Both the position numbers and the translations under genes were made by a program. The notes below the pieces were generated by a model. That model was not told the DNA's origin. It was given only the letters and a program-made list of their open reading frames with translations, and did not search any database. DNA of 64,000 nucleotides from a virus. This document shows positions 7,175 through 15,693 of the stretch, one piece after another. The first letter of the stretch is position 1. Each line of letters opens with the position of its first letter. The stretch lies in the UHGV virus genome UHGV-0167591; one strand, 5' to 3'.

Positions 7175-7363
7175 TTTTCACCTCTGATTGATTGGTGGTG
7201 CTAAGTGCGCTACGCGAAATCTGGAGCACTAACACTGCCAACATTTCGCAGATTTTACGTAGCGCAACCTTGATCAAATGATCAAGTGATCACTATTTGA
7301 CCTGATAAGGTATTGAACTGTATGGATTTACAGGTAAATTGATCATGTTCAATAACCCTTAAA

Positions 7364-7397
7364 ATAACTTCGTATAATGTATGCTATACGAAGTTAT
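7364..7397. other. loxP recombination site (34 bp)
   Basis: Exact ATAACTTCGTATA-ATGTATGC-TATACGAAGTTAT, two 13 bp inverted repeats around 8 bp spacer, about 420 bp upstream of cre. Confidence 0.98.
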
Positions 7398-7440
7398 CAG
7401 GTCAGAAGAGGAGTTTACGTCCAGCTGCGCACAAAAATCA

Positions 7441-7514: not shown

Positions 7515-7531
7515 ATTGCTCTAATAAATTA
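7515..7531. promoter_or_regulatory. C1 operator (immC region)
   Basis: ATTGCTCTAATAAATTA, 16/17 match to consensus ATTGCTCTAATAAATTT. Confidence 0.7.
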
Positions 7532-13331: not shown

Positions 13332-13532
13332 TTATCTGCTGCCCGGCATTCTCTGTTTAAGCACAACCATTTCCTGACGGCATAACACAGCAATAGCGGT
13401 CCTGACTCCAATTTGCTTACCAACCAGGTATTGCTTTACCTTGCGGCGACTCACGCCATCAAGAAGCATCTTTAACGCTTCACGGGACAATTTGTTGTAT
13501 TTGCGTGCCATTAATCTACTCCGCAGAACCAT
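13332..13532 (-). CDS. Small hypothetical protein, 66 aa (position of P1 pdcA)
   Basis: Short ORF overlapping the doc 3' end by 17 bp; coding status uncertain. Confidence 0.35.
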
Positions 13533-13896
13533 ACAATCTACGTAACGTGTCGGCGACAGAAGATACAGATATCTCGCCAGTCGCAGCGCCTACAGTAAGG
13601 TCTGCCAGTTCAGGTGAATCAAATACCTGCACCCCGTTACGGCGTAGAAATAGCAGCGCACTGTTTAGCGCGGTACGCTTATTGGCATCATTGAATATAT
13701 GCCCTCTCGCAGTAGCCACCAGGTAGGTGGCGGAGACTTCGAAAAGGTCGGTGATCTCTTCGTAGGCAACTCTGGCCTGAACTCTCCCGATAATGGCCTC
13801 TGCCCTACCCGGATCTGACATTCCCGGCAGGCCGCCGTAGCGGTTTATATTCGCATCATGAAGCGCAATAAGTTCTTCCGGTGATATATGCCTCAT
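13516..13896 (-). CDS. doc: Doc toxin (death on curing), 126 aa
   Basis: 126 aa, begins [22 protein letters not shown], Fic-family motif region; start overlaps phd stop. Confidence 0.95.
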
Positions 13897-14117
13897 TATC
13901 GGTTAACCAGTTCCTTGTTGGTGGAGTCCAGGGTGTCAAACAGGGATGCAAATTCAGCATCCAGCGCCGCTTTTTTGTAGGCTTCGAAAGTAGCCTTGCT
14001 GACAATTACTGCTGGCTCACGGCCTCTGCGGGTGATTTCAACCTCTTCCCCGGCTTCAACATTGTTGAGCACTTCAGAAAGGTTGCCGCGCGCGGTACGG
14101 AAGTTAATGGATTGCAT
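13896..14117 (-). CDS. phd: Phd antitoxin (prevent host death), 73 aa
   Basis: 73 aa from ATG at 14117 ([16 protein letters not shown]...); overlaps doc start by 1 nt. Confidence 0.95.
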
Positions 14118-14189
14118 AAACACCTCGTGTACTCGTTATGTGTACACAATTATAAACCTCACAGGCATAAAGCACCAGCCCTTTGCAGC

Positions 14190-14579
14190 TTAAATAACCG
14201 GACAATCATCAAACTCCCCACTTCGGGCATCATTGATGACATGAGTGATCACACCAAAAACAGCATTACTGCCCGTGCATCCATCGTCATCTACTGGTAA
14301 CGCCTCTTTCTTCCCGGTGCTTAAATCCTCCAGGTGCTGGCGCGGATACTTCCTGTATCTCTTTATGCGATATTCACCCTCCATAGCGCACACAAGCAGA
14401 GAACCATCAACCGGAGTAAGCGAGGAATCAACCACCAGCAAAGCACCCTGCAATATTCCCTCACGGTGATGGCTATCAGCTGCCCGCATGAAGTAGGTTG
14501 CTGATGGATGCCTGATTAGTTGCTGATCAAGAGAAATACGGCTCTCTGCATAATCCGCCGCAGGAGAAGGGAAGCCCAT
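14190..14579 (-). CDS. humD: HumD, UmuD'-like SOS mutagenesis protein, 129 aa
   Basis: S24 peptidase-like C-terminal domain lacking the UmuD N-terminal arm; LexA box directly upstream. Confidence 0.85.
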   Translation of the reverse strand: MGFPSPAADYAESRISLDQQLIRHPSATYFMRAADSHHREGILQGALLVVDSSLTPVDGSLLVCAMEGEYRIKRYRKYPRQHLEDLSTGKKEALPVDDDGCTGSNAVFGVITHVINDARSGEFDDCPVI

Positions 14580-14597
14580 AGCGTTTTACCTCAACAA

Positions 14598-14617
14598 TAC
14601 TGTTTATTCATACAGTA
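14598..14617. promoter_or_regulatory. LexA (SOS) box upstream of humD
   Basis: TACTGTTTATTCATACAGTA: perfect CTGT-N8-ACAG palindrome about 20 bp upstream of the humD start. Confidence 0.85.
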
Positions 14618-14678
14618 TACATTGAAAAGGCATAGTTTGTGAAAGCGGGGTTTGTACGCGCGCCACGCTGGGGGCTAA

Positions 14679-15029
14679 TCACATTGGTGGCGTGAACTTG
14701 CCATTCATATATTGCAAAATGCTTGACTCGATTTTTTCATTAAAATCAGAATGATACTCCTCAAGGACAAAGCGCGCCTTATTGTTGCGCACAATAACCT
14801 CCGCCAACGGCTTAACCAGAGATGTGGAGTTAGAGATTTTCTCGGCGCGCTCTACATCGCTTTTAAACGTTACGATGAAGTGCTGGTGGCCTGGTGACCG
14901 GCGACACAACATGCGTCGCACTTCCACGGTATCTTCACGGCCTTGAGTATGTACAGGAAAGCTATCGACCACCGCTGTATTGGTGCGGATTGTCTGCATA
15001 GAACGCGTGTTGTCGTGATAGTTAAGCAT
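14679..15029 (-). CDS. Hypothetical protein, 116 aa (position of P1 lxr); paralogue of 15337-15693
   Basis: ORF between hot and humD; shares QTIR...VV.S.P and F(I/L)xTxKS motifs with the divergent ORF at 15337. Confidence 0.6.
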   Translation of the reverse strand: MLNYHDNTRSMQTIRTNTAVVDSFPVHTQGREDTVEVRRMLCRRSPGHQHFIVTFKSDVERAEKISNSTSLVKPLAEVIVRNNKARFVLEEYHSDFNEKIESSILQYMNGKFTPPM

Positions 15030-15053
15030 GTTTAAGTCTCCCCCATCTTGCCG

Positions 15054-15305
15054 TTATTTTTTTTGCGCATCCTCGTTCTGATACACCGGATCGCTCCCTT
15101 TTGGCAACTGGAGGCTTAACTGCCGGTAGTGCCGTAGCCGTTCCATGAAATAGGCGCGCAGGTTTTCCGGTTGCTCACGGGCCACCTGCTCTGCAATCAC
15201 AGGTATATTCAGCCGTTCTTTGTAAGCAACGCCGCTGGCGGCAAGGTCTACGTTCACCTTGTCTCGCTCTTCCTGGCTTTTATCTGCTATATTTCGATCT
15301 GACAT
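15054..15305 (-). CDS. hot: Hot, homologue of DNA polymerase III theta subunit (HolE), 83 aa
   Basis: Motifs [33 protein letters not shown] closely resemble E. coli HolE. Confidence 0.88.
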
Positions 15306-15336: not shown

Positions 15337-15693
15337 ATGCACAATAACGTTCTCAATGTTAGCCGTTCAATTCAGACAATCAGAGACTGCACCAGTGTGG
15401 TGGCATCAATCCCATTGCGAAATAGCATAGACGAACTGCAAATTCGTGTATTGAACCTGAATCATGCCAATGCAATTAAGCAATTGCGCTTTATTTTGAC
15501 GCTTAAAAGTGAAGCAGAGGGGGTAAAGCACAGCGTAAAAGTGTTTTCTGAGGCCATTCTGCTTAATGGGAAGCTCCGGCATCTGGTAAGGCCAGAACGT
15601 CAATATCCTGACGTCCTGGCTCGTGAAAAATACCTTCTTTCCGAAGTTCAAGATAAGGTGATCGATTTCGTTAAATCTCATCCCCTGCATTGA
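15337..15693 (+). CDS. Hypothetical protein, 118 aa, paralogue of the lxr-position protein
   Basis: Divergently placed 31 bp from the hot start; shares N-terminal motifs with the 14679-15029 product. Confidence 0.5.
   Translation: MHNNVLNVSRSIQTIRDCTSVVASIPLRNSIDELQIRVLNLNHANAIKQLRFILTLKSEAEGVKHSVKVFSEAILLNGKLRHLVRPERQYPDVLAREKYLLSEVQDKVIDFVKSHPLH

Follow-up and report, generated by a model that had tools for sequence, protein, structure and literature searches.

The question raised by this locus is whether the palindrome at positions 14598-14617 of the window, by which we mean the whole stretch of 64,000 nucleotides that was analysed, is the operator through which the host's LexA represses humD. 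The window belongs to a P1-family phage-plasmid, with Escherichia phage RCS47 as its best match (98% identity). The genes around the palindrome follow one another on the minus strand in the order hot (a homologue of the theta subunit of DNA polymerase III, 15054-15305), ORF116 (14679-15029), the box, humD (14190-14579), phd (13896-14123) and doc (13516-13896).

A LexA site at this place is already known. The P1 GenBank record (AF234172) has a protein_bind feature at 87545-87564 described as 'LexA binding site in the regulatory region of lxr and humD' and the P7 record (AF503408) has one at 94404-94423 described as 'LexA; regulation of humD expression'. In PMC9603915 humD is treated as an SOS gene regulated by LexA. 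In the literature that was accessible to our search we found no direct measurement of LexA binding or of SOS induction for P1 humD; Ronayne 2016 measured humD during thermal lytic induction and not during the SOS response. We consider it very probable, judging from the sequence, that in this P1-family phage-plasmid, too, the palindrome serves host LexA as the operator for the repression of humD. The value of this result lies mainly in correct annotation, namely that a P1-like phage-plasmid keeps both the humD and the P2coi operators.

Sequence and score of the box

The 20-mer at 14598-14617 is TACTGTTTATTCATACAGTA (coordinates checked, exact); on the minus strand, which is the humD sense, the letters are TACTGTATGAATAAACAGTA. 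In that sense it agrees with the LexA consensus TACTGTATATATATACAGTA at 17 of 20 positions and both arms (TACTGT...ACAGTA) are perfect. No other place in the 64-kb window matches TACTGT-N8-ACAGTA with zero mismatches. The gap between the box and the humD ATG (14579, minus strand) is 18 nt. The preliminary description had called the match to the consensus almost perfect and had placed it within 20 bp of the humD start, and both statements were borne out.

We scored the window with a log-odds position weight matrix (PWM) and with the Berg-von Hippel heterology index (HI), both derived from the 18 documented E. coli boxes in Table 4 of PMC3009722. The box reached 25.2 bits with an HI of 2.56 in humD-sense and 23.6 bits with an HI of 3.65 on the plus strand, where the HI refers to the 18-site matrix and not to the original Lewis 1994 matrix, so that they should not be set directly against published values. 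When the 18 true E. coli sites were themselves scored leave-one-out we observed 10.5-27.5 bits and HI values of 0.6-12.8, a range that includes the box. Its rank is between recN (25.2 bits) and dinD (24.4 bits) and well above lexA (20.0 bits) and recA (18.4 bits), all leave-one-out. Scored in the way that the preliminary description had proposed, the box is found at the strong end of the proven E. coli sites and is the top PWM match in the whole window. From the exact distribution of scores we calculated p = 7.9e-10 per position, which amounts to 1.0e-4 expected matches per window over both strands. By score, 14598-14617 is a top-tier host LexA operator for which binding is predicted.

Only one other site in the window exceeds 13 bits. 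It is located at 7316-7335 (ACCTGTAAATCCATACAGTT on the minus strand; 17.9 bits, HI 7.8, 0.056 expected), 30 bp from loxP (7365-7398) and between cra/cre and coi/c1. Its sequence is the same as that of the other LexA site annotated in P1, at 46-65, which overlaps P2coi beside loxP. As the sole other strong match is a site that P1 is known to have, we regard the matrix as validated, and the presence of both boxes indicates that both known SOS inputs of P1 are kept here. The P2coi site is weaker than the humD box and controls the C1-inactivator Coi, which acts in the lysis-lysogeny switch, and not a repair function. We also searched for the C1-operator consensus ATTGCTCTAATAAATTT with at most 3 mismatches and found 15 sites in the window compared to 0.3 expected. 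They span 5402-58700 (for example 37803-37819, 7515-7531 and 22177-22193), which suggests that the C1 immunity network of P1 is intact across the window. No C1 operator was found within 2 kb of humD, and hence humD does not seem to be wired to the phage repressor.

In P1 and P7 the PWM matches fall on the annotated LexA coordinates. The P1/P7 site is orthologous to the one described here and has the same arms, but it stands 19 nt from the ATG instead of 18 nt and differs in two spacer bases (ATAAATGA in P1/P7, ATGAATAA here), with scores of 22.9 and 25.2 bits, respectively. The upstream neighbour is the divergent lxr (P1) or upf94.2 (P7), whereas here it is the co-directional ORF116 (phrog_2594), and the −10-like hexamer is TGTACT in P1 but TATACT in P7 and here. 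The differences from P1 in the spacer, the neighbour and the −10 are refinements and not discoveries.

Predicted promoter and mode of repression

For all comparisons between genomes we used two collections. The first consists of 13 relatives with HumD identities of 67-98%, which include P1, P7, RCS47, D6, Cyrano and plasmids from E. coli, E. marmotae, Salmonella and Klebsiella. For the second, IMG/VR was scanned for the HumD-type start Met-Gly-Phe-Pro-Ser-Pro-Ala-Ala-Asp; a box was not required and 95 distinct loci were obtained.

The best predicted sigma-70 promoter for humD is TTCACA-18-TATACT, which matches the consensus at 10 of 12 positions (this is a consensus match only). The −35 hexamer lies at 14638-14643 and the −10 hexamer at 14614-14619, both on the minus strand with a spacer of 18 bp between them. 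The Shine-Dalgarno sequence GAGG, read from the sequence, is located at 14589-14592 on the same strand, 9 nt before the humD ATG. The −10 and the box overlap by 4 nt: the end of TATACT supplies the first four bases of the box. An overlap with the core promoter is expected of a LexA operator and is present here for the predicted −10, and the −35 register seen across the family is consistent with it. TATACT is kept in 12 of the 13 relatives and in 26 of the 47 IMG/VR loci with a proximal box, and either GAGG or GGAG is found at the Shine-Dalgarno place in the aligned relatives.

Our first test of the −35, which assumed a fixed −10 register, was not discriminating (14 of 43 loci compared to at most 10 of 43 in the controls). 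A register scan across the IMG/VR loci gave a clear peak: a TTGACA-like hexamer with at least 4 of 6 matches occurred 22-26 nt before the start of the box in 27 of 32 distinct upstream-sequence groups, as against roughly 1 in 32 groups for a −35-like hexamer in other registers. The window's own −35 hexamer is in register 26. With a −35 in this register, the −10 of sequences that are otherwise unrelated falls on the 5' arm of the box to within 2 nt, and the recurrence of a −35 in a fixed register in unrelated upstream DNA argues for a local promoter. TATTGT, on the 3' arm, was considered as a −10 that would have given a recA-like geometry, but we rejected it, since a −35 partner is missing and hardly any leader would be left before the Shine-Dalgarno sequence.

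HumD expression in P1 is reportedly weak. Two independent P1 sequences, AF234172 (locus L002 in our set) and M95666 (L136), read TGTACT 2 nt upstream of the box (compare position 14618 of the window), where this window, P7 and 10 other relatives have TATACT instead. With a G for the critical A at −11 of the predicted humD −10, laboratory P1 may carry a promoter-down allele, and this A-to-G change could explain the weak expression. The P1 record puts its 'predicted sigma 70 promoter PhumD' at a different place (87080-87106, equivalent to 2658-2684 of L002), inside lxr and ∼440-480 bp upstream of humD. The corresponding DNA is absent from this window (compared over 14620-15030), from RCS47, from D6 and from the 110-kb plasmids, which makes it more likely that the conserved promoter is the one overlapping the box. 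The conserved humD promoter thus probably overlaps the box and is not at the position given in the P1 record, which is a small addition to the existing annotation.

The gene order of hot, ORF116 and humD raises the possibility that most humD transcripts come by read-through from promoters that lie before hot and ORF116 and that LexA acts as a roadblock or modulator. The three genes run in one direction and are separated by short gaps, our scan of 14100-15100 gave no terminator-like site, and in P1 a late promoter before hot (LPhot) is annotated in addition to the distal PhumD. However, the P1 sequences of both promoters are absent from the window, where LPhot is not conserved upstream of hot, and the −35 recurs in its fixed register with the box in unrelated upstream sequences. 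Furthermore the modules of P1, P7 and pC606_3 have no co-directional gene upstream at all. We regard read-through as the main source of humD transcripts as very unlikely, though transcripts from the co-directional genes could reach humD in addition to those of its own promoter.

The preferred reading is repression by LexA at the local promoter. We infer that a LexA dimer bound at 14598-14617 would cover the last four bases of the −10 (TATACT, 14619-14614) and also the predicted transcription start ∼7 nt downstream, at about 14605-14609 on the minus strand, and would in this way block the open complex of RNA polymerase (promoter occlusion). Upon DNA damage RecA filaments would trigger the self-cleavage of LexA and the operator would be vacated. 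humD would then be transcribed and its transcript translated from the GAGG ribosome-binding site. The low HI predicts that repression would be tight and induction late, as for umuDC.

The box in relatives and in IMG/VR

A box of 22-28 bits is present in all 13 relatives. In eleven of the annotated loci it stands 16-19 nt before the humD ATG, and in the Klebsiella plasmid pC606_3 it stands 44 nt before it, between humD and a divergent dinI. The box is also present in pSa1423, where humD is unannotated and which was for that reason left out of the spacing figures. The TACTGT and ACAGTA arms are near-invariant among the relatives and the 8-bp spacer is variable. Homology to the window fades just upstream of the promoter and the upstream gene varies: P1 has lxr there and P7 has upf94.2, in RCS47, D6 and pK91 the next gene is directly hot, this window and two plasmids have ORF116, and the 110-kb plasmids have unannotated DNA. 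The gene that stays with the box throughout is humD. That box and humD move as a unit among differing backbones is another small addition. One could go further and propose that the box, the local promoter, the ribosome-binding site and humD form a self-contained SOS cassette which has been moved among unrelated backbones, and that the local promoter is the real one and not the distal PhumD; we consider this stronger proposal doubtful.

Several details of the neighbourhood were observed in the course of this comparison. PMC9603915 describes hot-lxr-humD as a variable region of P1-like plasmids. ORF116 (116 aa, phrog_2594, no Pfam match) stands in for lxr of P1 and upf94.2 of P7 and shares 99% identity with a protein encoded by an E. 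marmotae plasmid. It has a paralogue in the window, ORF118 (15337-15693 on the plus strand, 118 aa, phrog_2594), to which it is 35% identical, and the two flank hot on opposite strands. RCS47 has the ORF118 copy only. In pC606_3 (Klebsiella pneumoniae; 1581-1657 of L009) the humD homologue (67% identical) is divergent from dinI around one strong box, TACTGTATATGCATACAGTA (25.1 bits), beside which there is a degenerate second copy. The humD/dinI pair forms a compact bidirectional SOS module that adjoins the sopA/parB partition genes.

Divergent arrangements of this kind suggest a different role for the box, in which it mainly serves a divergent neighbour and humD is only incidentally adjacent. 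The P1 record gives the site to both humD and lxr, the latter annotated as 'LexA-regulated function', and in pC606_3 the box has the divergent dinI on its other side. The window itself has no divergent neighbour: ORF116 is co-directional with humD and there is no lxr. Among the relatives, the upstream gene changes whereas humD and its 15-21 nt spacing from box to ATG are constant, and the box overlaps the −10 of a predicted promoter that is directed towards humD. With no divergent gene in the window and different genes upstream in the relatives, it is highly improbable that the box here mainly serves a divergent gene.

For the 95 IMG/VR loci we observed a box of at least 15 bits at 15-21 nt (occasionally 43-47 nt) upstream of the HumD-type gene in 55 cases. 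Of the remaining 40 loci 37 carry a strong box farther upstream, at 254-285 nt and in front of a leader ORF, which brings the number of boxed genes to 92 of 95, and two of the three exceptions simply have no upstream sequence. Among control segments of the same size 0 of 280 carried a box, and the background density was 0.068 boxes per kb. A LexA box precedes nearly all phage-borne UmuD'-type genes, in one of two layouts. A chance palindrome with no regulatory role, for which one could argue that AT-rich palindromes do occur in intergenic DNA and that a loose search (at most 2 mismatches) returned 3 matches in the window compared to 1.3 expected, is practically ruled out by the exact-score expectation given above together with the near-invariant arms that enclose a variable spacer in all 13 relatives and the contrast between these boxed genes and the controls. 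The claim of the preliminary description that the box couples humD to the host SOS response is supported by the score, the overlap with the predicted −10, the conservation, the P1/P7 annotation and PMC9603915, and such a coupling is what we would expect for this locus.

The second layout accounts for ∼40% of the IMG/VR matches (L027, L033, L035, L046, L068, L079 and ∼30 more). Its leader ORF has 79-80 aa (MPRR.DI...FNPNGGL, phrog_3893; no Pfam match for the 79-aa leader ORFs) and is translationally coupled to the UmuD'-type gene, which is the second of the pair, encodes 105-130 aa and is often 26-40% identical to HumD. One or two strong LexA boxes are found at the upstream distance given above. 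At 4573-5525 of L079 the pair follows lambdoid tail-fibre genes and is divergent from dinI. We considered whether this layout is the Gifsy dinI-antirepressor-irsA operon and rejected this; it is similar, but the arrangement is not the same. The dinI/antirepressor operons of the Gifsy prophages (PMC3121763) likewise use prophage SOS boxes, adjoining dinI, to tie an accessory operon to host LexA, though their cargo is an antirepressor and not a UmuD'-like protein. They compare better with the lambdoid layout of leader ORF plus UmuD'-like gene than with this window.

HumD, its partner and the downstream genes

The protein encoded by humD has 129 aa. All three comparisons assigned it by homology to the UmuD / S24 peptidase fold: with Pfam (Peptidase_S24, PF00717, 6e-9), with phrog_811 UmuD-like proteins (1.8e-54) and with the UmuD' structure 1UMU (8e-23). 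Residue 2 of HumD, a Gly, aligns to residue 1 of UmuD' (1UMU), which is residue 25 of full-length UmuD (8GMT_B). HumD is without the N-terminal 24 residues of UmuD and its start corresponds to the cleavage product at Gly25. The term UmuD'-like, used in the preliminary description, is literally correct because HumD is in the register of UmuD', and the protein can be described as a pre-truncated UmuD. With such a start HumD would be made directly as a UmuD' and the RecA-mediated cleavage step would be skipped.

The HumD proteins of P1 and P7 are 98% identical to that of the window, and P1 HumD is reported to complement UmuD' function in SOS mutagenesis and to bind UmuC and RecA filaments. By analogy, the HumD of the window would function as an activated UmuD and would complement UmuD' as P1 HumD does. 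In PMC7092418 HumD is presented as a shorter UmuD that is already activated, and the summary of McLenigan 1999 given there states that P1 HumD complements UmuD'.

No cognate umuC is located beside humD, where phd and doc lie downstream and ORF116 and hot upstream. We scanned 20 of the 24 frames of at least 300 aa in the window for a Y-family polymerase Pfam domain and none was detected in these; the other four frames have 303-343 aa and one of them is cre. Pol V has the composition UmuD'2C and host UmuC is itself controlled by LexA. As no phage umuC was found in the 20 scanned frames, HumD would pair with host UmuC, and from what is known of Pol V this is its likely partner.

The closest comparison is the umuDC operator of E. 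coli (TACTGTATATAAAAACAGTA). It is likewise a strong box (HI below 3 with the 18-site matrix) that stands before a gene of the UmuD family and overlaps the core of the promoter. The two operators share a logic by which mutagenic translesion synthesis is off until the SOS response. E. coli umuD, on the other hand, encodes a full-length protein which needs RecA-mediated cleavage and is co-transcribed with umuC, whereas humD is pre-truncated and without a cognate umuC in the scanned frames. As far as can be read from the DNA, a mutagenesis subunit that is already activated would here be kept under tight LexA control.

Downstream of humD, the adjacency to phd is not universal among the relatives: D6 and pSL26_91 have an extra ORF in between and the 110-kb plasmids are without phd-doc at this place. 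In the window the gap from the humD stop to the phd start is 66 nt (14124-14189). As no terminator-like site was detected between the two genes, SOS-induced transcripts could continue into phd-doc. If this is true, humD transcripts entering phd-doc could make the addiction module responsive to DNA damage.
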